Shown: positions 22,333 to 35,823, numbered from the stretch's first letter. The stretch: DNA of 48,470 bases from Promethearchaeota archaeon (GCA_048940645.1 JBHLOI010000026.1:1-48470); one strand, 5' to 3'. Notes: a model not told the origin generated them from the sequence alone. A program made the numbers and translations.

Positions 22333-24504
22333 TTACTTATGTTTAATTTCCAATCCAAATACGACTTTTTTTGTTAAGAGTTCCAGTTTTTCAAGTTTTT
22401 TTTTAATAAAAATTCTTACTTTTGCTGGACTAATTTTTGGATTATTAAAAAAAAGATCCTGAACTAGAGTCTCATTTTTTTTCCCCTTATTAGCTAGTTT
22501 TCTATGAAGGGGATCCTCATTATCATAAAGAGGTATAGGAAATGAAAAAGGCCTTTTATGAATGTGCCTGCTTGATTTAATTAACTTTATATTTTTCGTG
22601 AGTATTGGAGAATTGAGAACTGATGAAAGATAATATGCTTCATTAAGTATATCAGTTGAGAAATAATAGTTTTCTGAGGCAATGATAATATCTTTTTCAT
22701 AGTTATCAATAACAGCTGCTTTAATCATTGAACCACTCGCATTATATACAACAATAAAACGTTTATTGTAATATTGTTTTGACAGCTTATTCCAGTAGTT
22801 AAGATTTGAGAATAATGTTTCAATTTTACTTGTTGTTTTTTTCCTGTCTTGATAAATATTATTCAATTCATTATAAAATTCATGAGCTTTTGCATATTTT
22901 ACCAGATAATTCACATCAAATTCATAACTTTCATTAATAGGTAAAAAAATATCGCGAAATCTTTTAATGTAAAATGGAATTAAATCTTTGTTCAATAATG
23001 TTTTAAACCTAAATCTTTTTTCAATGGTTTTGTTTTGAAATTTGAAGATCCAATTTTTCTTTGCACGAGAAAGAATATCAGTGTCTGAAGAAATTATTAA
23101 ATTTCCATCTTTTTCAATATGAATGTTGAAAAATACAAGAGTTCTAGGAACAAGCGTGGCTCCTTGAAAAAATAAATCTTTATACTTGCTAAATGATAGA
23201 TTATTAAGAGTTCTTAGCTCTTTTTCTGGGAGTATTATTTTAACCCCTTCTTTTTCTATCTTAATACTGTTATATCTTGTCTCTTCCTGGAGATCTAAAT
23301 TGCTATTAAACAATTTTGCAGTAATAGGATATTTTTTCGAGAGAGGAATATTACTATTTTCTCCAATATACTTTGCTTTTAGGCAAATATGATTTATATT
23401 AAACAAATAACTATTTGGAAAATCCCAAATTTCTAACTCATTAAAAATGGAAAACTTTCTGAATTTATAACAGTGATCTCCGTTTAATACACTTTTAGTA
23501 ATCACAAAAAATATTTTTCCATTAAGTTTCAAGAATCTTTTGGGAATAGCATAGAAAAATATAGTTGCTAACTCAATATGAGTAATATATTGGCTAGGTG
23601 GCTTAATATTCAAAGATTCAGCTAAAGTTCTGATTTTAGTCTGATAACTCTTATCTTGAATATCCTTATATGTTAACCACGGTGGATTCCCAATAATTAA
23701 ATCAAAAGAATTTTTTAAATTTTCCCTACTAATGTAATTCTTTTCATTCTCTTTAGTAGGGAAGAGTGAATTCATGAAAACAACTTTCTGCTCACAAGTA
23801 TCTAATTCATTATATTCAAAGAAGTCCATTAGAATTAATACTAAATTAGTTTTAGTTGTTAATGTTGCTAAAGGATTAATATCAAATCCATACACATTAT
23901 CAATCGCATTTTTTTTTAATTCTTTTGGATATTTTGATTTTAAGATTTTCAAGAAAATTTCAACCAAAAAACTCCCTGAACCACATGCGGGATCTAGAAT
24001 TTTATTCCCAAATTCGTAAAAATCTTTAACCATCATCTTTACTAGAGTTTGGGAAGTATAAAATTCTCCTAATCGGTGTCTTATTATTGGAAAAAAAATT
24101 TGTTGATAAAGACTCTGAAATAAATCTTGATGTGAAAAAACACCATGATCTAATATTTCAAATATTTTTTCATGTAAAGTGCTATCTAAATGATAGTATA
24201 ATAACTCATTAAATTCATTGAATTCGACTTCTTTTTTAGTGTGATGATCTCTTAATTTTTTATTTAGTATCAATCTAAGAATTAGAACATAATAGGCTTG
24301 TTTAAGAAGTAAATCTTTGGAGGGAATAACGTTATAAATTTTTTTATAAAATGATTTTCTTCTTTGTAAATGCTCTAGATATTTGTGCTTTTCTTCTTTT
24401 ACTTCTTTTTCAAGGTATTGAATTGCTTCTTTATAGATTTGTGAGTTTAATCCAAAATATTTAACTATAAACTGAGAATCTACTACTTTTTTATTCTCAA
24501 CCAT
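22333..24504 (-). CDS. N6-adenine DNA methyltransferase with C-terminal target-recognition region (type IIG/Eco57I-like, no evident nuclease domain)
   Basis: LGEFYT, DPACGSGSFL (motif I), GFDINP, GNPPW (motif IV), and a TRD-like YYLSSVLNS segment. Confidence 0.9.
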   Translation of the reverse strand: MVENKKVVDSQFIVKYFGLNSQIYKEAIQYLEKEVKEEKHKYLEHLQRRKSFYKKIYNVIPSKDLLLKQAYYVLILRLILNKKLRDHHTKKEVEFNEFNELLYYHLDSTLHEKIFEILDHGVFSHQDLFQSLYQQIFFPIIRHRLGEFYTSQTLVKMMVKDFYEFGNKILDPACGSGSFLVEIFLKILKSKYPKELKKNAIDNVYGFDINPLATLTTKTNLVLILMDFFEYNELDTCEQKVVFMNSLFPTKENEKNYISRENLKNSFDLIIGNPPWLTYKDIQDKSYQTKIRTLAESLNIKPPSQYITHIELATIFFYAIPKRFLKLNGKIFFVITKSVLNGDHCYKFRKFSIFNELEIWDFPNSYLFNINHICLKAKYIGENSNIPLSKKYPITAKLFNSNLDLQEETRYNSIKIEKEGVKIILPEKELRTLNNLSFSKYKDLFFQGATLVPRTLVFFNIHIEKDGNLIISSDTDILSRAKKNWIFKFQNKTIEKRFRFKTLLNKDLIPFYIKRFRDIFLPINESYEFDVNYLVKYAKAHEFYNELNNIYQDRKKTTSKIETLFSNLNYWNKLSKQYYNKRFIVVYNASGSMIKAAVIDNYEKDIIIASENYYFSTDILNEAYYLSSVLNSPILTKNIKLIKSSRHIHKRPFSFPIPLYDNEDPLHRKLANKGKKNETLVQDLFFNNPKISPAKVRIFIKKKLEKLELLTKKVVFGLEIKHK

Positions 24505-24689
24505 CCTTTCTCAAATATCCAATCCCAATCAAATTTATCTTCAGATGAATTTTCAATGCTTTCATTTTGAGAAGAATTAACACCCTTAGAATTTATAATA
24601 GATTTTTTATCTTTATAATGATGGATTTTCGTGCGGAAATTAGATTTAATATTATTTTCTTTTTTAGCTTTAGACTTATTCATATCCAT
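24483..24689 (-). CDS. Small disordered hypothetical protein with an acidic/Trp-rich C-terminus
   Basis: 68-aa ORF between the PLD-like gene and the methyltransferase, overlapping the methyltransferase start; ends EDKFDWDWIFEKGWLRIKK. Confidence 0.45.
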   Translation of the reverse strand: MDMNKSKAKKENNIKSNFRTKIHHYKDKKSIINSKGVNSSQNESIENSSEDKFDWDWIFEKGWLRIKK

Positions 24690-24726
24690 CGCAATATTAA
24701 TTATTAGACTTTAAAGAAGTAAGATA

Positions 24727-25263
24727 TTATGTTCTCATAAAAGATGGAAGCATCAAAGTAAAGATTTCTGCTATTGTACGCAACTTGGTAGTTTCTTGGA
24801 TAGAAGTAACTATTAAAATAGATTTTTCAAGCTCATCTTTATCTAGTGATCCTCCTGAGTAAATTGCCTTTTCAGAATTAAATGCCAATAAATATCGAAC
24901 ATTTGGATTGTTTATAATACTTATTCCGCCGGTTTGCTTTAAGTCATCGTAAATCTCTTGATAACCTTTTGGAAGCCCTCCCCTATCATTAGTGATTATT
25001 AAAATAGGGATTCCTTGGTCTGCTAACTTCTTTAACTCATTAGCATAGAATTTGCCTATTTTAGGAGAAACAATATTTAGTTGGGTAGTAGTTGAGGTAA
25101 TTAACTCAATCAATAGGTCATTTAATAGATTCTTTTTATCCGAACCTCCTGATGATTTTAAATCTACCATCCCTACTAGTGATAATACCTTACTTTCTAA
25201 ATCTTGTACCTGTTTTTTGAGATTTTGATTCTCAAACCGAAGCTCAATTAATCTGTCTGACAA
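24727..25263 (-). CDS. Coiled coil plus degenerate phospholipase-D-like (HKD-less) domain
   Basis: N-terminal heptad helix; QLNIVSPKI...LADQGIPILIITND scaffold. The expected HxK-x4-D..GSxN region reads VRYLLAFNSEKAIYSGGSL. Confidence 0.65.
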   Translation of the reverse strand: MSDRLIELRFENQNLKKQVQDLESKVLSLVGMVDLKSSGGSDKKNLLNDLLIELITSTTTQLNIVSPKIGKFYANELKKLADQGIPILIITNDRGGLPKGYQEIYDDLKQTGGISIINNPNVRYLLAFNSEKAIYSGGSLDKDELEKSILIVTSIQETTKLRTIAEIFTLMLPSFMRT

Positions 25264-25345
25264 AATAAATCGGTTATAAATTTAATTTTTATATATTAGT
25301 TAATATACTAAATTTTTAAAAATATTTGCTAAAGGAAATTTGATT

Positions 25346-27931
25346 TTAATTAAGTTTTTTCCAAGGTTTCCCGAATAGCATATAACTTGAAATTGCTAAA
25401 GAATTTTGTAAATCTATACTCACACTTCCTTCCTTGTCGCTTAGATCTTTAAATTTTTCTTCTACAAGTTTAGTCATCTTATTTGCCATACATACTTGTT
25501 TTGCCTTTAACAGTGAAATCCCTTGACTCGTGTTCTTAAATAAATTAATATAGAAATTAGCAATAATTTCCTTTGTTTCATTGTCAAATATCGGATAATT
25601 TCTAGATATTATTCCTAATATCTTGTCATAATCAAATTGTTCTGTGATTTCACCAAAAGTTTTTAGGACATTTCCCATTTTTTTTCCGTTTACATCATAA
25701 ATTTGTGTATTAAAAAATAAAAAGGGTTGTTTAGTTTCTCTGTTGAAGTTTTTTGTTAACGAATTATAAATCTCTCTAATCGTAACTATTTGATTATCAT
25801 TTGTAATAAAGAAACTATCATTAGGGTTCCACTTTGAATAAAAAATATTACCAACAAAATGTATGATATGATTTGTACCCTTCGATATATTAGATAAAAT
25901 GGCTTCCCTTGTTGATTGTTTATTGGAAAGTACTGTTATTGTTTTAACCTCTTCCCTTTCATTAAAGAATTTTGTAATAAAGTCTAATTCATTTGCTCCA
26001 GCAGAAAAAGGAAAAATTAACTCTTTATTTTTAATTGAATCGTTCCATTTGAATGGTCCCAAAGCATTTATTGAATCTATTAATAAGACATTATATTGGT
26101 TTAATTCACTAGTTTCTTGCACCCCTTTTTCACCAAGTTCAAAAGCAACTCCGCCTAAAGGTGGTTCACCAATAATATATCCTATTGAATATTTCAATAA
26201 AAAGAAATTGTTATCGTAAATCAATTCAAAAGGGATGGTCATGTGTTCTAATATGAAATATATCTCAGGTATGAAAGTTAAAGCCTTTATTTCAAACTGT
26301 TTTAAAAGTTTTCGTATAATTTTTGGAAGAAATATATATAATAATTTTCCAAATTCCATAAGATTAAAATCAAATCTTTTCTCTTCACCTTCAGAGAAGA
26401 TTTCATTATAGAGTTCTATAATTTGTGCATCATTCCAAAACTCATTTAATATTTTTCCATCAAATATTTCACCATCTTGAGACATTATCCTATAAGAAAT
26501 TAGACCCTGCCCATCTATTCTAAAAATCATTTGTTTTATTATGAACTTTTCTGCCTCAAAATGGAATTCCTCTGATTTAAATGAATATATATTTTCGTGT
26601 AATGCTTCTGTTTCATGATACAATATTGCAGGATCTAATATTATTGATTTAAGATGTTTATCTAAATATGGAATAATTTTACGAGCAAGATTATAATTCT
26701 TTTCTTCAAATAAGGCACGATAAAACATCATACGCCAAAAGTCTCGAGGTTCTAAAGAAAAAAACATAGATTTAAACTGCCAAAGATAATTGCATGTATA
26801 GAAGTAATGAAATAATTGAGCATTAGTTTGAGGAATCTTTAAATGGGTATTTAATTTCTCAAGAGATTGTAAAAGATATTTCTTTTCCTTCATATCTACA
26901 AATCTTTTGCATGCTTCAACCCACAATTCAATTAATAAGTTATCATATCCCAAATCTGTTTGAGACATAAAAAGATCTTCAAGAAAGTCATAAATATCAA
27001 ATGCTATTTCGAAACGATTTCGTGATATAGAAAAGTCAATAAATTTTCTAATATAAGTCACAGCATCACCAAATGATTGAAACTTTCTGATTTTTGCGAA
27101 TAGATTCTTTATAATTACTATAATCCATGAAAATTCTCCTATATTATTTAAATAAAGTATTAAATCTTCAAGATCTACTAATATTCCGTCGAAATTTCTT
27201 TCATTTATCGTTACTCGACTTAAATTACTAAATTCATTTTTTAGATATCCTGGGAGGCGATTTATTAGAATTTTATTTATTTTTTGAACAAATTCAGGAG
27301 AATTTTCTAATAATTGGTAGTTGTTGTTAATATTTTCCAAAAAAATATATAAAAATAAAGCTCTTTTATTAGGTTCCAGTTTAAATATTGTTCTACCTAA
27401 AATTTCCATACTAAAATGAAAAAATTCTTGAGGAAAAACAGATTTCCTTAAATACATTAATAAAATTTGTAATTCTATTAACTTCTGATATTCTTTTCTT
27501 TCACTTACTTTTACACAATAAGAATTTATAAATTTAGTAATACCAGATTGAGATAAGTCTTTCACAGTTATGAATGACTTTAAAAGGTTAGTTACAAAAT
27601 TATTAAAAATATAAAAATCATCCAATTTTGATAGAAAGGAAAAGAATCTTTTATATGCATCAATATATTTAATCATATCAACATCTATTTTTCCCTCAGT
27701 TCTATGAATCAATGAATTAATGTACATCCACCAAGAATTTGAAATTACCATTATTAACTGGTGCTTCTTTTGGATGTCTAACCATTCATTTTTTTCAATC
27801 TCGAAATATAAATCGGTTAATAGTCTATCTGCCCATCTATGATTACCAAATTGCAATAAACGCCTACTCTGTATAACTTTTTGTTGGAAAACCTCTAAAA
27901 AATTACTTTCTGTAGATAAATTGACAGTCAT
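25346..27931 (-). CDS. Alpha-solenoid protein with a C-terminal catalytically inactive CHAT (caspase/separase-fold) domain
   Basis: FGKLLY..LP, IPFELIYD, ANELDFI, HIIHFVGNI (in place of HFxGHG), FLFFNTQ (in place of FLNAC), NFYINLF, SYMLFGKP. Confidence 0.75.
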   Translation of the reverse strand: MTVNLSTESNFLEVFQQKVIQSRRLLQFGNHRWADRLLTDLYFEIEKNEWLDIQKKHQLIMVISNSWWMYINSLIHRTEGKIDVDMIKYIDAYKRFFSFLSKLDDFYIFNNFVTNLLKSFITVKDLSQSGITKFINSYCVKVSERKEYQKLIELQILLMYLRKSVFPQEFFHFSMEILGRTIFKLEPNKRALFLYIFLENINNNYQLLENSPEFVQKINKILINRLPGYLKNEFSNLSRVTINERNFDGILVDLEDLILYLNNIGEFSWIIVIIKNLFAKIRKFQSFGDAVTYIRKFIDFSISRNRFEIAFDIYDFLEDLFMSQTDLGYDNLLIELWVEACKRFVDMKEKKYLLQSLEKLNTHLKIPQTNAQLFHYFYTCNYLWQFKSMFFSLEPRDFWRMMFYRALFEEKNYNLARKIIPYLDKHLKSIILDPAILYHETEALHENIYSFKSEEFHFEAEKFIIKQMIFRIDGQGLISYRIMSQDGEIFDGKILNEFWNDAQIIELYNEIFSEGEEKRFDFNLMEFGKLLYIFLPKIIRKLLKQFEIKALTFIPEIYFILEHMTIPFELIYDNNFFLLKYSIGYIIGEPPLGGVAFELGEKGVQETSELNQYNVLLIDSINALGPFKWNDSIKNKELIFPFSAGANELDFITKFFNEREEVKTITVLSNKQSTREAILSNISKGTNHIIHFVGNIFYSKWNPNDSFFITNDNQIVTIREIYNSLTKNFNRETKQPFLFFNTQIYDVNGKKMGNVLKTFGEITEQFDYDKILGIISRNYPIFDNETKEIIANFYINLFKNTSQGISLLKAKQVCMANKMTKLVEEKFKDLSDKEGSVSIDLQNSLAISSYMLFGKPWKKLN

Positions 27932-27949
27932 GGTTTTTGAAATTTTATA

Positions 27950-29095
27950 TTATTGTAAATTTGGATTTTCTACCCAACCCTTGTTTAATTTTTCTTTTGA
28001 GTATAGAATTGAAGCCCCTATCCAACCCATATTATCTCTTCCAGAGGCAGCAATTACTTTAATTTTGTTTTTTAATTTTTCTGAGAAAAATGCTTGTAAC
28101 TCAAATTCTAATCTTTTATCTAATCCGGGGATGAGACTTCCACCACCTGATAAGATAATATTAGGGATTAATTCCTCCCAATTCTCTCTCTCCCACGTCT
28201 TTATTACTTTTGAAACGGCTTCTGCTAACCCAATATAATCAACATGAGCTAATCTTGGATTAAATAAGGGTTCTGTTAATAAAAAGCGTTCTAAATTAAT
28301 CTTTAAATTAGATCCATCTGGAAGATCAATAATTCTATCATATTTCGTTAATCCTTCTTTTACTCTTTTTTGTTCTTCTTTAGGATCTAATAAACATAGT
28401 GATAATTTTTCTTTAATTTCTTTTGCAATTGATTTATCAATATAAATACTTTTTTTAGTCCCGATTCGACTTAATATTAAATTTAAGAAGTAATCTGTTA
28501 ATTGTTTTCCAGAAATAGGGAAAACATCGCGGGCCATTATATTAGTAAATCCATGAAAAATTGTTGAGATATAAGTAGAAGATTCACCCATATTTACAAC
28601 AACGCCACTAGATTTTTGTAATGTAGAAAGAATCGCCTGACTTTCATGTAAGAAGAGAAGTGAAGGAAAATTTAATGTTTTAAAAAATAATTCTTGTAAT
28701 TTTGATTTCTCTAAATCAGATATGAAAAAGGGTGTTAGGATAATTAAGGGTTGCCCAAATTGATATTGTTCATCAATTTTCAGTTCTTTATAATAATGCA
28801 AAAAAAATTTAAGCAGTAAATTATAATTCTTTTCCTTTTTAAACTCGTGAATTCGTAATATATTCTGATATTTTAACGCCTGATGACCTACCAGATGTGT
28901 AATTGGACTTTCTTCAAGAAATAATTCTTCTAATCCTTCAATAATATCAGAAGTGAATATATAATCAGAAATGTCCACATATACACTCGGAGCAATTATA
29001 TCCGGAAAATCATCACCTGCCCATCCTATCCTTGAAATAGCTGAACCGAAATCAAGAATTAAAGGACGTGTTTGGTCTTTTGGTTTCAAGGACAT
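27950..29095 (-). CDS. Divergent actin-family protein (Asgard actin/ARP-like)
   Basis: LILDFGSAISRIGWAGDDFP (phosphate 1), GVVVNMGESSTY (phosphate 2), GKQLTDY, IKEKL, LPDG..ERF..EPLFNP, ILSGGGSLIPG, WIGASIL. Confidence 0.93.
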   Translation of the reverse strand: MSLKPKDQTRPLILDFGSAISRIGWAGDDFPDIIAPSVYVDISDYIFTSDIIEGLEELFLEESPITHLVGHQALKYQNILRIHEFKKEKNYNLLLKFFLHYYKELKIDEQYQFGQPLIILTPFFISDLEKSKLQELFFKTLNFPSLLFLHESQAILSTLQKSSGVVVNMGESSTYISTIFHGFTNIMARDVFPISGKQLTDYFLNLILSRIGTKKSIYIDKSIAKEIKEKLSLCLLDPKEEQKRVKEGLTKYDRIIDLPDGSNLKINLERFLLTEPLFNPRLAHVDYIGLAEAVSKVIKTWERENWEELIPNIILSGGGSLIPGLDKRLEFELQAFFSEKLKNKIKVIAASGRDNMGWIGASILYSKEKLNKGWVENPNLQ

Positions 29096-29143
29096 AAAAA
29101 ATCTTCAACTTTTTAGTTAAGAATGTTATTTAATAATAGAACC

Positions 29144-29881
29144 TTAGAGAGGTCTTTGTTGATGAACATAATCATCCGCTAGGCGCTTAAGTTGATATTC
29201 CTTAATTTGTAATTCCAATAAGCCTAATACTTTTTTAAACTCACTTGACATAGATTCAATATCAACATCCGTCAACTTTTCAACCTCATCTCGCTTAATT
29301 TTAAACTGCCCTAAATTAAACTGAATTTTTTCATGTAATGTATTAATTGAATTCACTAAATCCTCTGTATTCTTTTTTGTTATTTTTCTCATCTTTCTTA
29401 AAATTGCTAAAATCGATGAAACTGAATTTTCCCACATTCCATAACGATCGCCATAACCTTGAAATACCTTTTCAAAAAACTGAGATAAATTAAGATAAAC
29501 ATTATCCTTTTTAGAAAATGAAGGTTTTATTACGGTTTTAGGCATTTTTTCTTCCTTTTGCTCTTCTAGAATTGCTGTTGATTTTGCTTCCTCCATTGGT
29601 GCTATTATTGTTCTTTCTTTCGTTTGTCCTCGTTCTGATAAAGGAATCTCTTCCATCATATAATCCTCAGCAATCTTTTTTTTAGTCTCATACGAAAGTT
29701 GAGGCTCAATTTTTTTCTCTTCTTCCCTAGGTGCTACATATCCTGTATCTTCTGAAAAAGCTTTAAGTAATCCCTGTAGAGTAGATTCCGTTTTTTTAGA
29801 ACTTTTTAATGCTGTATCTAGAGTATAACTAGATACCTCCTCTTTTTCTTTCTTTTTATCTTTCTTCTTTTTTTTAGCCAT
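29144..29881 (-). CDS. Hypothetical protein: Lys-rich N-terminus, charged disordered linker, C-terminal coiled-coil bundle
   Basis: Begins MAKKKKKDKKKEKEE; heptad-like helices in the last ~110 aa. Confidence 0.7.
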   Translation of the reverse strand: MAKKKKKDKKKEKEEVSSYTLDTALKSSKKTESTLQGLLKAFSEDTGYVAPREEEKKIEPQLSYETKKKIAEDYMMEEIPLSERGQTKERTIIAPMEEAKSTAILEEQKEEKMPKTVIKPSFSKKDNVYLNLSQFFEKVFQGYGDRYGMWENSVSSILAILRKMRKITKKNTEDLVNSINTLHEKIQFNLGQFKIKRDEVEKLTDVDIESMSSEFKKVLGLLELQIKEYQLKRLADDYVHQQRPL

Positions 29882-29909
29882 TTGAATTATTCAACAAATT
29901 TTTTTTAAC

Positions 29910-30311
29910 TTAATCTAATGGAAGAACCTCTACCTTTAGGGCATCGCCTTTTTCTTTCAGAATTCTTTTAAGGCTTTCGAGATTATCAGGACTCTCTGAT
30001 ATAACAGTCCACTCAGCAGTTTTATCTTTTTCTATAATCACTGCTTCACTATACATCATACTTAGACCTTGTTCTCCATATGTATTTGCAAGTTTAGCAA
30101 GTGCCCCAGGAATATCTCTCATAGTGATCCGGAGCTTAATTGGATTTTTCTCATCAGCTAAACCTATGGGTGTAATTTTAATCTCTTTACTTTCCGAATC
30201 TGCTACAAGCATTAACTGTGAGTTCGTAGTGAGACCCAAGCTCTTTCGAATTAACTGAGGAATTACAATCCGGCCTCTATTGTCAATGGTGATTACTCTA
30301 ACTTCTTTCAT
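29910..30311 (-). CDS. AbrB/MazE-type DNA-binding domain fused to an ACT domain
   Basis: IDNRGRIVIPQLIRKSLGL (AbrB) and ITMRDIPGALAKLANTYGEQGLSM (ACT). Confidence 0.88.
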   Translation of the reverse strand: MKEVRVITIDNRGRIVIPQLIRKSLGLTTNSQLMLVADSESKEIKITPIGLADEKNPIKLRITMRDIPGALAKLANTYGEQGLSMMYSEAVIIEKDKTAEWTVISESPDNLESLKRILKEKGDALKVEVLPLD

Positions 30312-30466
30312 AGAATCAACTTATTGTAATTTTAGTTATAATTATTATTAAGTTTCAAATATAAAAATTTTATACAAACAAATTACCTATTGAAAGAAGT
30401 ATAAAAAAAAAAACAATTGAAATTCACAAAGAAAAATAGGGATGTTTGAAAAAATAGTATAGTTGA

Positions 30467-32614
30467 TTACATATCATGTTTATGTGCCTTTAATTTAACC
30501 GTTAAATCACGAGCTCTCTTTGAATACCAAATCAATAGCTCCCCCGCATCTTCTGGTTCAAAATACTCTCCACCGCATAATGAAGCAGCACGGATCATCA
30601 ATTCACGATCAGGATTCCCAAGTCCTACGATATAAATAACTACGTTTGGATTTTCTGCAAAGAGCTTAACTGATTTAAAGAAGTCATCACCATCGGTGGG
30701 AACTCCATCTGTGAGGAGAACAACCATAGTAGGTTGATCGGGGTTAATTTTATCAAATTCTGTAAGAACTTGGTGCGCTTTTGCCATTGCTGATCCCATA
30801 TTAGTTGCCTGACCATAAGCATTTCCAATACGGTCTACAATCATGCGTGCTGCATCTTCAAGCACACCTTTTTTTCCACTGGCAGAGTCCATATAAAAGC
30901 TATCCGTAAACGGTAATATTTGAGCCTCGTCTGCGAATCGTATCACCGAGACTTTTTCTCCAAAACCTCTACCTACTTTTTCACTTAGAAATAAAACTGC
31001 CGCAAACGCCGCAGCTATACGTCTAGGGATGTTAACTCCAGGCTTGAAATGGACAAGAAATTCCTGAATTTCACGTGATTCCATTGCTGCTTTAATTCCT
31101 TCAATAGCAGGGGCGATATTAGTAACAAATACATCTCTGGCCATCATCGAACGGCTGATATCAATTATTAGTATCGCATTGAATGGTATTAGACCAGTTG
31201 GAGTTAAATTTATCGCTGTATTTCCAGTAATTTGAGCAAAAATATCACCAGTTAAATCTGGAACGGTATTTAATAAAGAGCATGCAATATTAACTGCGCT
31301 CCATCTCAACTTAATACCCTTGAAGATGATATAATTGGCTAGCCATCCTTTTAAGGAAGCAACGTTTTGACGTGCTGTGCTAATAATTTCCCACATATTT
31401 TCCCCACTAATAGGAGAGATACCTAGTGCTACATTTTGTAGAGGGATAACTGGACGGAGATTTTTATATACCTTCACTTCAAAACTGCCAATTCCAGAAG
31501 CCTCTAATATTTCACTATCAATAGTAATCGAATTATCCGGAGTGGCTTCAGAGATTTCGACTTTTGCTGCTCCTATTGCTCCGGTAAGCTCATCCTCGAA
31601 AGCCATAATATCATCTGGTATTAATGATAATACATATTGAGTTCTAGGACTTACTAGGCAATATCCTAATAGGTTAGGCTGAGAGTGGACTTCCAGCATA
31701 ATTTCAGATGCTTTTTGGATGGGAGGTTCAGTAGAATATACAACTACTTGCTGGGCATGAATATTGGTATCTTCTTTAGTATTTCTTCCCATTCGTATTT
31801 CAGTAGGACTTATCATAGCTTCGTCAATTCTAGCTGAGCCCATTGATCTAGTTAGTGGGTCTTCCCATGCTACAAGTAAACCAGCACCAAGACCCAATTG
31901 ATGAATAACAGTACTATTAAGTTGTATTCTCCCTCCTTCAATAGTATTATCAACAACAGGTGTTAGGATAATACCTGCCTTTTGACTTTGGAGCATCTTT
32001 ACATCAATTCTATTAGGGTATGGTTCTGCCGTTGGCGCTTGAGGAACTGATGGTTGAGGGGGGATAGATGATGGTGGTGTTGGAGCAGGTGTAGGTTGTG
32101 GAGGTGGAGTGTATGTTGGCTGAGGTGTCGGAGTGGGTTGAGGGGGCGGAGTATATGTTGGTTGAGGTGTTGGAGTGGGTTGAGGGGGTGGAGTCGGCAC
32201 ATACTGGGGGGTAGGAGCTTGAATTGGCTGTGGAGTAGGTTTAGGAGGAGGTGTTGGAAGGGGTGTAAGTCCTGGTTGGGCTTGGGGTTGTTTTTGAGGG
32301 GTTGGTTGCGGAGCAGGTACCTTTGGTATCTGTAATTTAGGAGTTACTAAACCAGTACTACTCATAGGTCTTATTATTAATTCTACTCCACTAAATTGAA
32401 GCTGATCTATGATATTTTTAGAGATTTGAGCTGCAAAATCTAAAACCATATTTGAGACTTCTATAGTGCCTGTAGTTTTCGTATTATTATCTGGATTTTC
32501 TATTTCAACTGATGCACCATTAGATACTCTTAATTTATTTGCATTTTCTTGACATATAACCACTTTTCCAGTGGTGTTTTCATTAACATCAACAAAAATT
32601 TTTAATTCAGACAT
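30467..32614 (-). CDS. Multidomain protein: CDC48-N-like double-psi barrels, Pro-rich linker, C-terminal vWA domain
   Basis: vWA MIDAS motif intact (IIDISRSM, ATNMG, LLTDG). Three repeats such as RIQLNSTVIHQLGLGAGLLVAWEDP. About 100-aa P/T/Q-rich linker. Confidence 0.8.
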   Translation of the reverse strand: MSELKIFVDVNENTTGKVVICQENANKLRVSNGASVEIENPDNNTKTTGTIEVSNMVLDFAAQISKNIIDQLQFSGVELIIRPMSSTGLVTPKLQIPKVPAPQPTPQKQPQAQPGLTPLPTPPPKPTPQPIQAPTPQYVPTPPPQPTPTPQPTYTPPPQPTPTPQPTYTPPPQPTPAPTPPSSIPPQPSVPQAPTAEPYPNRIDVKMLQSQKAGIILTPVVDNTIEGGRIQLNSTVIHQLGLGAGLLVAWEDPLTRSMGSARIDEAMISPTEIRMGRNTKEDTNIHAQQVVVYSTEPPIQKASEIMLEVHSQPNLLGYCLVSPRTQYVLSLIPDDIMAFEDELTGAIGAAKVEISEATPDNSITIDSEILEASGIGSFEVKVYKNLRPVIPLQNVALGISPISGENMWEIISTARQNVASLKGWLANYIIFKGIKLRWSAVNIACSLLNTVPDLTGDIFAQITGNTAINLTPTGLIPFNAILIIDISRSMMARDVFVTNIAPAIEGIKAAMESREIQEFLVHFKPGVNIPRRIAAAFAAVLFLSEKVGRGFGEKVSVIRFADEAQILPFTDSFYMDSASGKKGVLEDAARMIVDRIGNAYGQATNMGSAMAKAHQVLTEFDKINPDQPTMVVLLTDGVPTDGDDFFKSVKLFAENPNVVIYIVGLGNPDRELMIRAASLCGGEYFEPEDAGELLIWYSKRARDLTVKLKAHKHDM
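32086..32211 (-). repeat. Coding tandem repeat, about 3 x 42 bp (PQPTYTPPPQPTPT)
   Basis: Protein reads PQYVPTPPPQPTPT-PQPTYTPPPQPTPT-PQPTYTPPPQPTPA; G-rich repeated DNA on the + strand. Boundaries approximate. Confidence 0.85.
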
Positions 32615-32719
32615 TATCCATCAATAATTTATTATAATCTGATATAAAAATATGTTCTATTTATCTTACTTTTCAAAAATTTATTAATAAACGTAATCTC
32701 AATTTAAAATAACCAAAAA

Positions 32720-33109
32720 TTACATAAGAGGATATCTTTTCGAAATTTCAGCTGAATAATATCGAAACACGGAAACAATTTTCCCTAAATCTTCAACCTT
32801 ACGACTGGCACCCATAAGAAAAAATCGACCTGCTGCACTTAGGATTATAAATGCATTTTCGCCTCTTAATACAACTTCAAGTAGATCTGTATATCCAAGT
32901 GAATCAATAGCATCTTGACCGCTCTGCATTACCACTGCACTTAAGCTAGAAAATAAATCAGGTTCTACTTCATAATCTGGAATGCAAGAAAAAGCGAGTC
33001 TCAGACCATCCCGAGTAACTAACGCGAGGGCTTCTAATTCTGTGTATTCAGTTATACTTCCAAGAAATTTAGATAAGCTGTGAGCTTCTTCTGGGCTTAA
33101 ATCACTCAT
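32720..33109 (-). CDS. Roadblock/LC7 protein
   Basis: LEALALVTRDGLRLA...LFSSLSAVV...LLEVVLRGENAFIIL..DLGKI. Confidence 0.85.
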   Translation of the reverse strand: MSDLSPEEAHSLSKFLGSITEYTELEALALVTRDGLRLAFSCIPDYEVEPDLFSSLSAVVMQSGQDAIDSLGYTDLLEVVLRGENAFIILSAAGRFFLMGASRKVEDLGKIVSVFRYYSAEISKRYPLM

Positions 33110-33253
33110 ATAAATAACTCTGGTTATTTTTTTGAATTAGATATTTTTATATAATTAATAATTAATAAAAACTTCAGACTTAAAAATTTATATTTCTAAT
33201 CCTAACTTTAAGATAGGTTATAAAATTAAAAGCAAAGAGATTAAAAAAAGAAT

Positions 33254-34102
33254 TTATTTTTTGCTTTCTAATTGTGTTTTAATTTGATCTTTTAAAATTT
33301 CTTTTTTAGTTTTATATTCAATGGATTTACCTTCAGGTCCTCCAGCTCGTTTTAAAAATTCAATTGCTAGAATTTTACCATTCTCAGATAATATACGTGG
33401 TGAATAATTTTCAGCAAAAAAAACTCCTTCAGGTACAGTCCCTACTTTAGAAATCTCTTTTGAAATTTCCTTCTTGCCTAAAAATGTTTGAACTTTTTCA
33501 ACAACTGAATAGGCGTGATTGCCAATAATAATCAATTCCCTTTCGAATCCATCAGGTATCTTAATCTCTTCCAGTTTTTGCATAATTTGTTCAAAATTTA
33601 CATGTGTTTCATCCTGCATAAGGGATGCTAAAGATTCTTTACCAGTATAAAGCGGACCAGTATTTTGAGAAGCGCGATCTCTACTTCCTGCTATATTCAT
33701 TCCCTCAGCAGGTCTAGGAGCACCAAAGGGATCTTTTTCCCTTAAAGGATGCACAGCAGGGGCTGCCCTTGTTACTGGTTTTTCATCAACCTTTATTTCT
33801 TTTGCGATTCCACCTTCTGTTTTTCCACCAATCAATTTTAAAAACTCTGCATCTTCCTCACCCTCATCTTGAGGCACAACAGCATAATGCATACCAACTT
33901 GTCCACGTATTTCTTGGCTCCTTTTTGCTCCGATAAATTTCGACCTCACATTACTTTCTACACCTTTCCATAGATACACTTTGCGAACTTCATCTGACAC
34001 TAAGACATAGCATTCTTCGGTTTTTAAGATATCTTTAATGGAACCATCAGTTTTTAGTTCGCTTGTCGTTCCGTCCATATTAATTTTGAAGACTTGTGTC
34101 AT
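33254..34102 (-). CDS. Single gelsolin-domain protein with an additional C-terminal domain (1DGelX-like)
   Basis: LKTEECYVLV...VYLWKGVESNVRSKFIGA...DEGEEDAEFLKLIGG matches the gelsolin repeat consensus. Probable start is ATG at 34102, downstream of GAGGA. Confidence 0.85.
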   Translation of the reverse strand: MTQVFKINMDGTTSELKTDGSIKDILKTEECYVLVSDEVRKVYLWKGVESNVRSKFIGAKRSQEIRGQVGMHYAVVPQDEGEEDAEFLKLIGGKTEGGIAKEIKVDEKPVTRAAPAVHPLREKDPFGAPRPAEGMNIAGSRDRASQNTGPLYTGKESLASLMQDETHVNFEQIMQKLEEIKIPDGFERELIIIGNHAYSVVEKVQTFLGKKEISKEISKVGTVPEGVFFAENYSPRILSENGKILAIEFLKRAGGPEGKSIEYKTKKEILKDQIKTQLESKK

Positions 34103-34257
34103 TTTACTATTCCTCAACCGAGTATCATTATCAATAAAAAAACAAAGATAACTTTTTACTATAATAATAGGTAAAGAATTAATAAATTTTTATCTTCAGA
34201 TATTATTTTGTGTAAATTAATATTGCAAGTAAGAGGTAGAATTTTCTCCCAAAAGAG

Positions 34258-35823
34258 TTAAAATTTTTGTAGTGTTAAAATTGCATTATTTATATTTTCA
34301 ATCATATTCATCGCTGTAAATCGTGGTCCTATGTTCTCTTTGCAGTATTCACCAATATAACCATTTAAAAATGCTGCAGAGCAAGCAGCCTGAAAAATAT
34401 CATTATTGGTGGCTAAAAAAGAACCACAAAGTCCTGCCAAAACATCTCCTGTTCCACCAATTGACATTTCTGGACAACCAGTTCTATTAATCTTTAGTTT
34501 AACACCATCACTAACATAATCATAAGGACCTTTAACTAAAAGAGTCACCTTTAACTTTTTTGCGAGCTTAAAAATCTTTTGCCCTCTTTCTTCAATATCA
34601 TCATAAGGGGGTAAATCTATATTGGTTAGGATTTTTAATTCTCCTTCATGAGGTGTTAAGATAACATCTTCGCTTTTAATCAAATTGAGGTGTTTCTTAA
34701 TTAATTTTAACGCATCTGCATCAAGCACATACTTTTTTTTATTAACTTTTAGATATTCAAGAAGTTGTATCAATAATTTTTCAGTTTCTTCTTCCAAACC
34801 TAAACCTGGACCTATTATCAATGCATTTGACCAATCTATTAAAGATTTTAACTCTTCAAGCGAGCCAACTGTTAACCAATCCCCCGGATTAGTTCTCACA
34901 ATTAAATTTGGAGAATAACTCCTAATCACTTCCCCAACAATTTCAGGAACGTAAGTTATAACTAAATCACAGCCAAAATTAATACATGTAAGGGATGAAT
35001 ATGCAGGTGCTCCAGAATAATTTTTTGACCCTCCAATCACTAATACTCTCCCAAATTGCCCCTTATGATAATCTATTTCTCTAATCTTTAATGTTGGAAG
35101 TAAATCACCCCGACCAACAAATAAAGCAGCTTCTTGAGGAATTCCTATTGATCTAACTAATAATTCATTTATATATTCAGTCTTAGGATGTAAACCAATT
35201 TTAAGTTTATGAAAAGTAATTACTAAATCTGCCTTTATTGCCTTATCCAAAACCTCACCCGTATTAGGATTTAGTCCACTTGGTACGTCAATTGAAATTA
35301 CCTTAACATTCAATTGGTTTCTAACTTCATTGATAAAATCTATTATTGTGGCAGTTGGTTCTCTAACCCTCCCTTTTATTCCAGTGCCTAATAATGCATC
35401 AACAATTACTTTAATATTTTTATCTTGTTCTAACAATATTCCTATTTTTCCAATTTCAGTCGAATCTTTTATTATTTCAACTGTTAATGCAATTTCTAAA
35501 TTATGCCTTATAATCTCCCAATTTAATTTTGCTTCTTCAGTTGTAATTTTTTCAGGATCACCTACTAAAACAACGATGCTTTTTACTCCAAATGAATTCA
35601 AATGACGAGCGACAACAAAACCATCGCCCCCATTATTTCCAGTTCCACAAAATATTAAAACTTTAGAATATGAATCCAAATTAAATTTATTGATGATTTC
35701 TGATGCGAATGAATACCCTGCACATTCCATTAAATGACTTTTGGGAATGCCTAACCACTCAGAGTTATTATCTAAAATTGCCATCTCTTCAGAAGTAATC
35801 CTTTCAGAATTATATCCCTCCAT
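34258..35823 (-). CDS. nnr: Bifunctional NAD(P)HX epimerase/dehydratase
   Basis: LMECAG, GNNGGDG, DALLGTG, DVPSG, HKGQFG, GPGLG, LDADAL, TPHEGE, GGTGDVLAG. Confidence 0.95.
   Translation of the reverse strand: MEGYNSERITSEEMAILDNNSEWLGIPKSHLMECAGYSFASEIINKFNLDSYSKVLIFCGTGNNGGDGFVVARHLNSFGVKSIVVLVGDPEKITTEEAKLNWEIIRHNLEIALTVEIIKDSTEIGKIGILLEQDKNIKVIVDALLGTGIKGRVREPTATIIDFINEVRNQLNVKVISIDVPSGLNPNTGEVLDKAIKADLVITFHKLKIGLHPKTEYINELLVRSIGIPQEAALFVGRGDLLPTLKIREIDYHKGQFGRVLVIGGSKNYSGAPAYSSLTCINFGCDLVITYVPEIVGEVIRSYSPNLIVRTNPGDWLTVGSLEELKSLIDWSNALIIGPGLGLEEETEKLLIQLLEYLKVNKKKYVLDADALKLIKKHLNLIKSEDVILTPHEGELKILTNIDLPPYDDIEERGQKIFKLAKKLKVTLLVKGPYDYVSDGVKLKINRTGCPEMSIGGTGDVLAGLCGSFLATNNDIFQAACSAAFLNGYIGEYCKENIGPRFTAMNMIENINNAILTLQKF

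Follow-up and report, generated by a model that had tools for sequence, protein, structure and literature searches.

A divergent Lokiarchaeial actin-related protein is encoded in a conserved gene block with a separase-shaped pseudo-protease, a pseudo-PLD protein and an orphan helical protein

Eukaryotic actin-related proteins (ARPs), such as those of Arp2/3, of dynactin (Arp1/Arp11) and of the HSA-helix modules of INO80 and SWR1, are divergent members of the actin fold with slow or no nucleotide hydrolysis, held in a fixed scaffold of non-actin proteins. Several actin paralogs occur in Asgard archaea and, to our knowledge, a role is known for Lokiactin only. Here we describe the genetic surroundings of a divergent ARP encoded on a stretch of 48,470 nucleotides from a Promethearchaeota archaeon (GCA_048940645.1, JBHLOI010000026.1:1-48470); this whole analysed stretch is referred to as the window. 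Next to the ARP gene lie genes for an 861-aa protein with helical repeats and a CHAT/caspase fold (CHAT861), a 178-aa protein with a PLD fold and a 245-aa orphan protein (CC), and these four genes are referred to as the core block. A likeness to the eukaryotic ARP complexes would lie in the combination of a divergent actin fold with a fixed non-actin scaffold; no partner family is shared.

The three non-Lokiactin actin homologues ('ARPs') of 'Ca. Lokiarchaeum ossiferum' have been covered by phylogeny and reverse-transcription quantitative PCR (RT-qPCR) only and were placed among 'Asgard and eukaryotic ARPs', with no finer assignment (PMC9834061). The ortholog of the window's ARP in this species is UYP47647.1 (locus L077), inside which both published RT-qPCR primers map. 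It belongs to the same clade as the window's ARP and has the same CC-ARP-CHAT-PLD neighbours, the products of which measure 230 aa (CC), 860-890 aa (CHAT) and 173 aa (PLD) in this species; it differs in showing 32% identity to the window's ARP and in having no AbrB gene upstream, and it was published without partners or function. In full-text literature searches, no publication was found that connects a CHAT or separase-like protein with an actin homologue of Asgard archaea. An initial annotation of the window had suggested that the locus would be an undescribed context for an Asgard actin paralog, and no published description of it was found in these searches; as far as they reach, the core block is an undescribed context for an Asgard ARP. 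It names three specific candidate partners for one ARP, is present in a cultured species and opens experiments on archaeal ARP function and on whether ARP complexes predate eukaryotes.

Our preferred interpretation, to which we assign a probability of about 0.5, joins two statements. The first is that the stretch consists of two independent units, A (24727-30311) and B (30467-34117, with the adjoining Nnr gene), which are neighbours only in the family of the window. The second is that the core of unit A encodes a non-catalytic scaffold complex built on an ARP subunit. Unit A comprises the following genes, with the method on which each assignment rests:

29910..30311, minus strand: AbrB/SpoVT-type DNA-binding domain with a C-terminal ACT-like domain, 133 aa (TIGR01439)
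29144..29881, minus strand: orphan protein CC, 245 aa (no Pfam family)
27950..29095, minus strand: divergent ARP, 381 aa (Pfam Actin, tree)
25346..27931, minus strand: TPR-like helical-repeat protein with a CHAT/caspase fold lacking the catalytic dyad (CHAT861), 861 aa (Pfam, AlphaFold2 [AF2] model)
24727..25263, minus strand: PLD-fold domain lacking the HKD motif, with an N-terminal coiled-coil helix, 178 aa (AF2 model, Foldseek)

Neighbourhoods were mapped around the ARP ortholog in 20 genomes and around the CHAT protein in 14 more, with all genes of the window placed. The genomes fall into three families of one Lokiarchaeial order: f1 (the family of the window, with more than 10 genera), f2 and f3. 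The CC, ARP, CHAT and PLD genes were contiguous in every locus in which all four were matched (about 30 loci in f1, f2 and f3), among them that of L. ossiferum (f2), whose genome is a single contig of 6,035,313 bp. In f1 the AbrB gene was part of the contiguous series (AbrB-CC-ARP-CHAT-PLD), with the exception of one locus that has a 4.3-kb insertion between AbrB and CC; AbrB also heads the block in f3. The AbrB-CC, CC-ARP and ARP-CHAT spacers of the window measured 28, 48 and 18 nt, exactly as annotated, and median spacers across loci were 38 nt for AbrB-CC, 48 nt for CC-ARP, 23 nt for ARP-CHAT and 82 nt for CHAT-PLD. Genes flanking the block changed by family, with a methyltransferase and a DEAD-box helicase in f1, Hef and PHP in f2 and HpaB in f3. 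The core neighbourhood was thus kept in f1, f2 and f3, whereas the nine-gene neighbourhood of the initial annotation was not kept beyond f1.

The full-length CHAT861 family was present in 117 of 134 f1 genomes, in 7 of 14 f2 genomes and in the one f3 genome (1/1). Among 266 genomes outside f1-f3 in a sample of the phylum it was found in none, and the only CHAT proteins detected there were of about 555 aa and had an intact dyad. The core block is single-copy, vertically inherited and restricted to one order. Relative to the nearest relative (dS 0.2-0.3), the ratio of non-synonymous to synonymous substitution rates (dN/dS) was 0.14 for ARP, 0.14 for CHAT861, 0.12 for the PLD-fold protein, 0.15 for CC and 0.03 for AbrB. 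Since values for the core proteins lie at 0.12-0.15, the 'dead' proteins among them are maintained by purifying selection. The block is an unusual putative operon under purifying selection in which nearly all products are pseudo-enzymes, and none of CC, ARP, CHAT861 and the PLD-fold protein is likely to be an enzyme. An apparent joint gene loss in three genomes of the same genus (G014, G022 and G004) was rejected, since the PLD gene lies at a contig end and the pattern is an assembly break. All three contigs concerned (G014:C83, G022:C252 and G004:C153) stop precisely where PLD and CHAT meet; assemblies seem to break here repeatedly, which could mimic loss in presence/absence surveys.

A shared locus may also reflect genes that are held together by descent or common regulation while their proteins act separately. 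We consider this improbable. It would fit the spacers of 48-82 nt, which could hold promoters, and the outcome that no Rosetta-stone fusion was found, and interaction of the products is something that we infer. However, order and tightness of the block are kept at 22-45% identity of the core proteins between the three families while its surroundings change. Moreover, three loci, one each in f1, f2 and f3, show a 4-nt overlap of the ARP and CHAT genes, which are separated by 3 nt in a further f2 locus, and ARP and CHAT861 are jointly present or jointly absent in closed genomes; the closed genome G032 (4.36 Mb) lacks both. A candidate ARP-CHAT fusion in G018, an open frame of 1256 aa, was rejected since a stop codon separates the two genes.

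The ARP matched the Pfam family Actin (PF00022) with 167.2 bits (cut-off 27), and eukaryotic actins matched it at 118-128 bits (phmmer). Of the six actin-family matches of the genome it diverges most; the true Lokiactin, encoded on another contig, scored 433 bits. Phylogenetic analysis placed the block-linked ARPs in one monophyletic clade (support of 98 in the Shimodaira-Hasegawa-like approximate likelihood ratio test, SH-aLRT), apart from Lokiactin and two other paralog groups. Lokiactins formed a group of their own (support 100), in which the window's ARP is not included. Branching within the ARP clade followed the families; compared with Lokiactin, its branches are many times as long. Monophyly of the clade and agreement of its tree with the families argue for vertical descent.

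Among ARP orthologs, the phosphate-1 loop (DxG) has a nearly invariant D15 and an invariant G17, and in the adenosine loop (SGG) G317 is invariant, the loop reading LSGGGS in f1 and being more degenerate in f2. The phosphate-2 loop reads NMGESSTY, as opposed to DxGDGxT(H) in actin, and varies among orthologs (NLGEQ, SLGDR, DIGHY and DFGHF), while the equivalents of Gln137 and His161 are not conserved. Judged from these motifs, nucleotide binding by the ARP is plausible and efficient hydrolysis appears unlikely, as is typical of structural Arps and not of treadmilling actins.

In the L. ossiferum ARP gene (L077, 10700-11800), the conserved N-terminus and phosphate-1 loop lie upstream of the first in-frame ATG, GTG or TTG, and use of the first canonical start would remove about 45 conserved residues. 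The reading frame suggests either a non-canonical start, at an Ile codon just after an in-frame stop, or a faulty annotation. In the closed genome G038 there are two more actin-family genes of very high divergence (L206, 1360-3328, and L212, 579-2580; 84 and 96 bits). Both are sister to the CHAT-linked ARP clade, and the start of each is overlapped by an upstream ORF (open reading frame) of about 290 aa with no convincing family.

CHAT861 matched the Pfam family CHAT with 28.2 bits (cut-off 24), and a search of its family profile against solved structures returned designed helical repeats only (E > 0.2). Its AF2 model (predicted local distance difference test, pLDDT, 84.9; predicted template modelling score, pTM, 0.78) shows helical repeats over residues 5-448, then a small beta unit and a module of caspase-like fold. 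Foldseek ranked Csx29 (TPR-CHAT; 7zoq, E 7e-11), the anti-sigma factor DdvA and separase highest. In VIA-align comparisons, residues 464-861 aligned with the separase fragment ctSPD (5fby/5fc2) at Z 15.3-15.5 and a root-mean-square deviation (rmsd) of 4.0 over 282-286 residues, and CHAT861 aligned with the C-terminal half of Csx29 at Z 15.3 over 283 residues, with SAVED-CHAT at Z 16.3 and rmsd 3.1 over 190 residues, and with caspases at Z 11-12. In the model, CHAT861 matches the layout of separase, with a helical N-terminus followed by a pseudo-protease/protease part, as a likeness of fold only.

CHAT861 thus shares with Csx29, of the type III-E CRISPR 'Craspase', and with eukaryotic separase a helical-repeat N-terminus followed by a caspase-like CHAT module (rmsd 3.5-4.0). 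It differs from both in a sequence identity of about 10%, in the replacement of both catalytic residues in all orthologs, in a gene neighbourhood without Cas7-11, securin or cohesin, and in having an actin relative as its partner gene. The dyad was gone in 21 of 21 orthologs: Asn (Ile in one) replaces the His, and Cys is missing both from its position and from the vicinity. The orthologs read GN(I/L)F in place of the GHA of the paralogs, and FFNTQ or variants in place of NAC, while the nearest paralogs, from other orders of the class, retain FAGH and NAC. Because the replacing Asn and an adjoining NP..S..T motif are nearly invariant, the pocket may have been kept for binding. The nearest CHAT relatives outside the order (L169-L172, in G163 and G165-G167, of other orders of the class) are of about 555 aa and have the His and Cys of the dyad intact. 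At the G165 and G163 loci an Arf-like small-GTPase region directly precedes CHAT in the same frame of about 555 aa, which may represent a separate fusion or pairing.

The likeness to Csx29 calls up a different origin, in which a Craspase-like TPR-CHAT protein, a PLD nuclease and an antitoxin-like AbrB gene are the relic of a conflict system, inactive or domesticated and surviving as a sensor or decoy. Besides the best structural match, which is Csx29, the frequent occurrence of PLD nucleases and AbrB/MazE folds in defence islands and the type IIG-like methyltransferase that adjoins the block in f1 would agree with such an origin. We nevertheless regard it as very unlikely. Eight proteins, the core ones included, had no match in PADLOC-DB 2.0 (E up to 0.01), in which only the neighbouring methyltransferase was matched, and the genes adjoining the block, in the window as well as at the f2 and f3 loci, included no cas families. 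An actin-family subunit is no known component of defence systems. The genes are single-copy, vertically inherited and conserved in position, their tree agrees with taxonomy, and both catalytic sites are dead in all members, which are yet under purifying selection.

The second pseudo-enzyme of the core, the PLD-fold protein, was modelled by AF2 (pLDDT 83) as a long N-terminal helix followed by a PLD fold; its Pfam score of 18.6 is below the cut-off of 27. Foldseek matches were NucT (E 1.2e-8; template modelling score 0.62-0.69), Nuc (1byr), Zucchini, the FAM83 pseudo-PLD and the C-terminal domain of TrmB/TrmBL2. The HxK(x)4D motif is absent: the position, assigned via the sequence pattern and not by residue-level structural superposition, reads NPNVR(Y/K)LL, with N-V-R/K in 10 of 10 aligned orthologs and an invariant N121. 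A PLD fold without a working HKD that serves binding is known from FAM83 DUF1669 and from the C-terminal domain of TrmB/TrmBL2 (5qhm, 5lzk, 5bqt and 2f5t), and the TrmB family also has a coiled coil ahead of the domain. The protein encoded here differs from these in lacking a winged helix-turn-helix domain and a kinase-docking context, and identity is only 10-15%.

CC combines a lysine-rich N-terminus and a variable low-complexity linker with a C-terminal helical domain of about 115 aa, which is the only part that is conserved across families. An exhaustive profile search of 1.84 billion proteins with this domain yielded 81 representatives at E up to 0.001. Strong matches were to short proteins (about 200-350 aa) or to fragments, in which the domain is C-terminal, and a look-up in the ESM Atlas gave no usable match. 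By these searches the domain is classed as an orphan. The AbrB protein matched TIGR01439 with 32.2 bits (cut-off 28.3), PRK08577 over its full length (E 3e-25) and Pfam MazE/AbrB with 26 bits; the match of its C-terminal part to Pfam ACT is weak (15 bits, E 0.022).

These parts also allow a reading in which the ARP belongs to a DNA- or chromatin-associated complex acting on nucleic acid, as nuclear Arp4-Arp9 do on the HSA helices of remodellers, with the basic tail of CC and the PLD-fold protein as its DNA-contacting parts. Such a role is a serious rival, though an improbable one in our estimate, because the folds matched best by the PLD-fold protein are those of nucleases and of the C-terminal domain of TrmBL2, an archaeal chromatin protein, and because CC carries a basic tail, opening with a run of lysines. 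AbrB is itself a DNA-binding fold, and nucleic-acid enzymes adjoin the block in two settings, the methyltransferase and DEAD-box helicase in f1 and Hef and PHP in f2. These neighbours vary between families, however, and may be there by chance. The part of TrmB/TrmBL2 that is matched is the one that does not bind DNA, the HKD motif of the nucleases is absent, and searches with the four core proteins revealed no DNA-binding domain.

For a complex of the core proteins, the following arrangement can be envisaged. The ARP, probably nucleotide-binding yet impaired in hydrolysis, would pair with the separase-shaped scaffold CHAT861, the product of a gene that is probably coupled to it in translation. 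CC and the PLD-fold protein would attach via helical or coiled-coil parts, and the lysine-rich tail of CC could tether the complex to an acidic surface, for example a membrane or nucleic acid. If Arp2/3 and dynactin are taken as analogues, its most likely job would be either to dock on, cap or anchor Lokiactin filaments or to keep a ligand in the preserved pseudo-active-site pocket. In f1 and f3, transcription of the block would be set by AbrB-ACT. A more specific version, for Lokiarchaeales, is offered only tentatively and is doubtful: the separase-shaped pseudo-protease may hold one end of a non-polymerising ARP, and the assembly may cap, nucleate or anchor Lokiactin, or gate a ligand in a securin-like manner. 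If true, Archaea would have a first defined ARP complex, the partners in which are unrelated to those of eukaryotic Arp complexes.

Several observations weigh against a scaffold complex built on the ARP. We infer complex formation among the core proteins, and nothing in this analysis ties the ARP to Lokiactin. The published RT-qPCR data show only that the L. ossiferum ortholog is transcribed, below the level of Lokiactin (PMC9834061). AbrB is missing from f2 and is thus no obligatory part of the block, and the PLD gene could be transcribed on its own, since the 82-nt spacer that parts it from CHAT contains a T-run and a TATA-like element. Nucleases and a chromatin protein are among the closest folds to the PLD-fold protein, which points away from the cytoskeleton. 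A search for fused forms among ARP relatives of 668-2000 aa found none, which is weak evidence. A complex prediction for ARP with residues 250-861 of CHAT861 (the N-terminal 249 residues left out), both given as alignments, returned 0.00 and counts neither way. The initial proposal, an ARP-like subunit that would act with the solenoid/pseudo-CHAT and coiled-coil proteins, is supported in its core at the level of gene linkage: the genes, with that of the pseudo-PLD added, are inherited as one block in three families, with near or actual overlap of the ARP and CHAT genes.

Upstream of unit A lies unit B, with the gelsolin-roadblock-vWA (von Willebrand factor A) trio. Together with the genes at both ends, the remainder of the gene run is as follows:

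34258-35823, minus strand: Nnr, bifunctional NAD(P)HX epimerase/dehydratase
33254..34117, minus strand: one-domain gelsolin with a C-terminal extension (1DGelX-like), 287 aa (PDB phmmer match)
32720..33109, minus strand: Roadblock/LC7 protein, 129 aa (Pfam Robl_LC7)
30467..32614, minus strand: proline-rich protein with a C-terminal vWA domain, 715 aa (Pfam VWA)
24483..24689, minus strand: 68-aa ORF, doubtful gene (no family; overlaps the start of the methyltransferase ORF by 22 nt)
22333-24504, minus strand: N6-adenine methyltransferase (MTase) of the Eco57I/type IIG kind, 723 aa

Residues 6-99, approximately, of the gelsolin matched the Loki 2DGel structure 7whg (E 1.7e-7) and a one-domain gelsolin (E 4.5e-7) in a PDB phmmer search, with a weak Pfam match; about 190 residues beyond this domain belong to no family. 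The thorarchaeal gelsolin 1DGelX likewise consists of a single gelsolin domain followed by a C-terminal extension (PMC7444086); the likeness is one of architecture, and the present gene differs in being fixed in an Nnr-gelsolin-roadblock-vWA block. The roadblock protein (Pfam Robl_LC7, 27.3 bits, cut-off 23) is always encoded between the gelsolin and vWA orthologs. In the vWA protein (Pfam VWA, 38.7 bits, cut-off 23.8) the DxSxS motif, of the metal-ion-dependent adhesion site type, reads D-I-S-R-S, and a proline-rich repeat linker at about residues 95-200 was read directly in the translation; the parts before this linker and between it and the vWA domain carry no assignment. For CDC48N, which the initial annotation had assigned to this protein, there was no Pfam match at E up to 0.1, and residues 195-475 had no sequence match in the PDB. 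The other domain assignments held (gelsolin, roadblock, proline-rich vWA, AbrB, divergent actin, CHAT without His/Cys and a PLD fold without HxK), whereas ACT is weak and CDC48N was not confirmed.

That all nine genes form a single cytoskeletal/remodelling cluster, in which the gelsolin, roadblock and proline-rich vWA proteins work with the divergent actin, is very unlikely. The two blocks adjoin in most f1 genera, and gelsolins do act on actins (PMC7444086). The order Nnr-gelsolin-roadblock-vWA is, however, conserved across the whole order and lies apart from the ARP block in f2 and f3. In L. ossiferum the trio and Nnr are at 4.894-4.898 Mb and the ARP block is at 4.584-4.588 Mb, about 310 kb apart, a distance that is similar in the closed genome G038 (trio at 1.315 Mb, ARP block at 0.997 Mb); in f3 they lie on different contigs, and G032 has the trio in spite of lacking the ARP block. 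The vWA-AbrB junction is loose within f1: its gap has a median of 236 nt, 10 of 21 loci carry insertions of 1-7 kb there, and several genera have no trio or a trio without vWA.

In the window, a terminator-like run of 5-10 T and a TATA-like element come after each gene of the trio (spacers of 105-155 nt), and there is no room for them between the genes from AbrB to CHAT; these elements fit separate transcription of the trio genes. Nnr, a housekeeping gene, is linked to the trio as tightly as the trio members are to each other. Because the trio is separate in f2 and f3 and present in G032, gelsolin is no closer linked to the divergent actin than Nnr is. Of the single cluster, the tight CC-ARP-CHAT-PLD block in three families thus stood, and gelsolin, roadblock and vWA became a separate, order-wide block. 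By its predicted signals this is an ordinary Asgard gelsolin (1DGelX-type)-roadblock-vWA unit with putative promoters of its own, and it should not be read as part of the ARP system. The tie of Nnr to these three genes across the order is a stable and unexplained pairing of metabolite-repair and cytoskeleton-type genes.

All nine consecutive minus-strand ORFs of the initial annotation (24483-34117) were present at their coordinates. The co-directional run is longer, however, with Nnr upstream and the MTase, a DEAD-box helicase, an Arf-like GTPase and a 191-aa ORF downstream; since it extends past both ends, the nine-gene boundaries are arbitrary. The 68-aa ORF had tblastn matches in the four nearest genomes only, mostly partial, and is doubtful as a gene and not conserved. 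In most f1 genera the MTase gene directly follows the PLD-fold gene; two have it inverted and more diverged, and the f2 and f3 loci lack it. It matches PADLOC type IIG models over the methylase part only and may be an orphan methylase.

The genome carries a TFIIB gene and eukaryote-like signature genes, which mark it as that of a Loki-type Asgard archaeon, and its close relatives are metagenome-assembled genomes such as Loki_b31, Loki_b32 and the ABR series. The G+C fraction is 0.36-0.37 over the vWA, roadblock and gelsolin genes (30001-34000) and 0.26-0.30 elsewhere in the window. This rise stems partly from the proline-rich (CCN) repeat linker of the vWA protein, the length of which varies among relatives.

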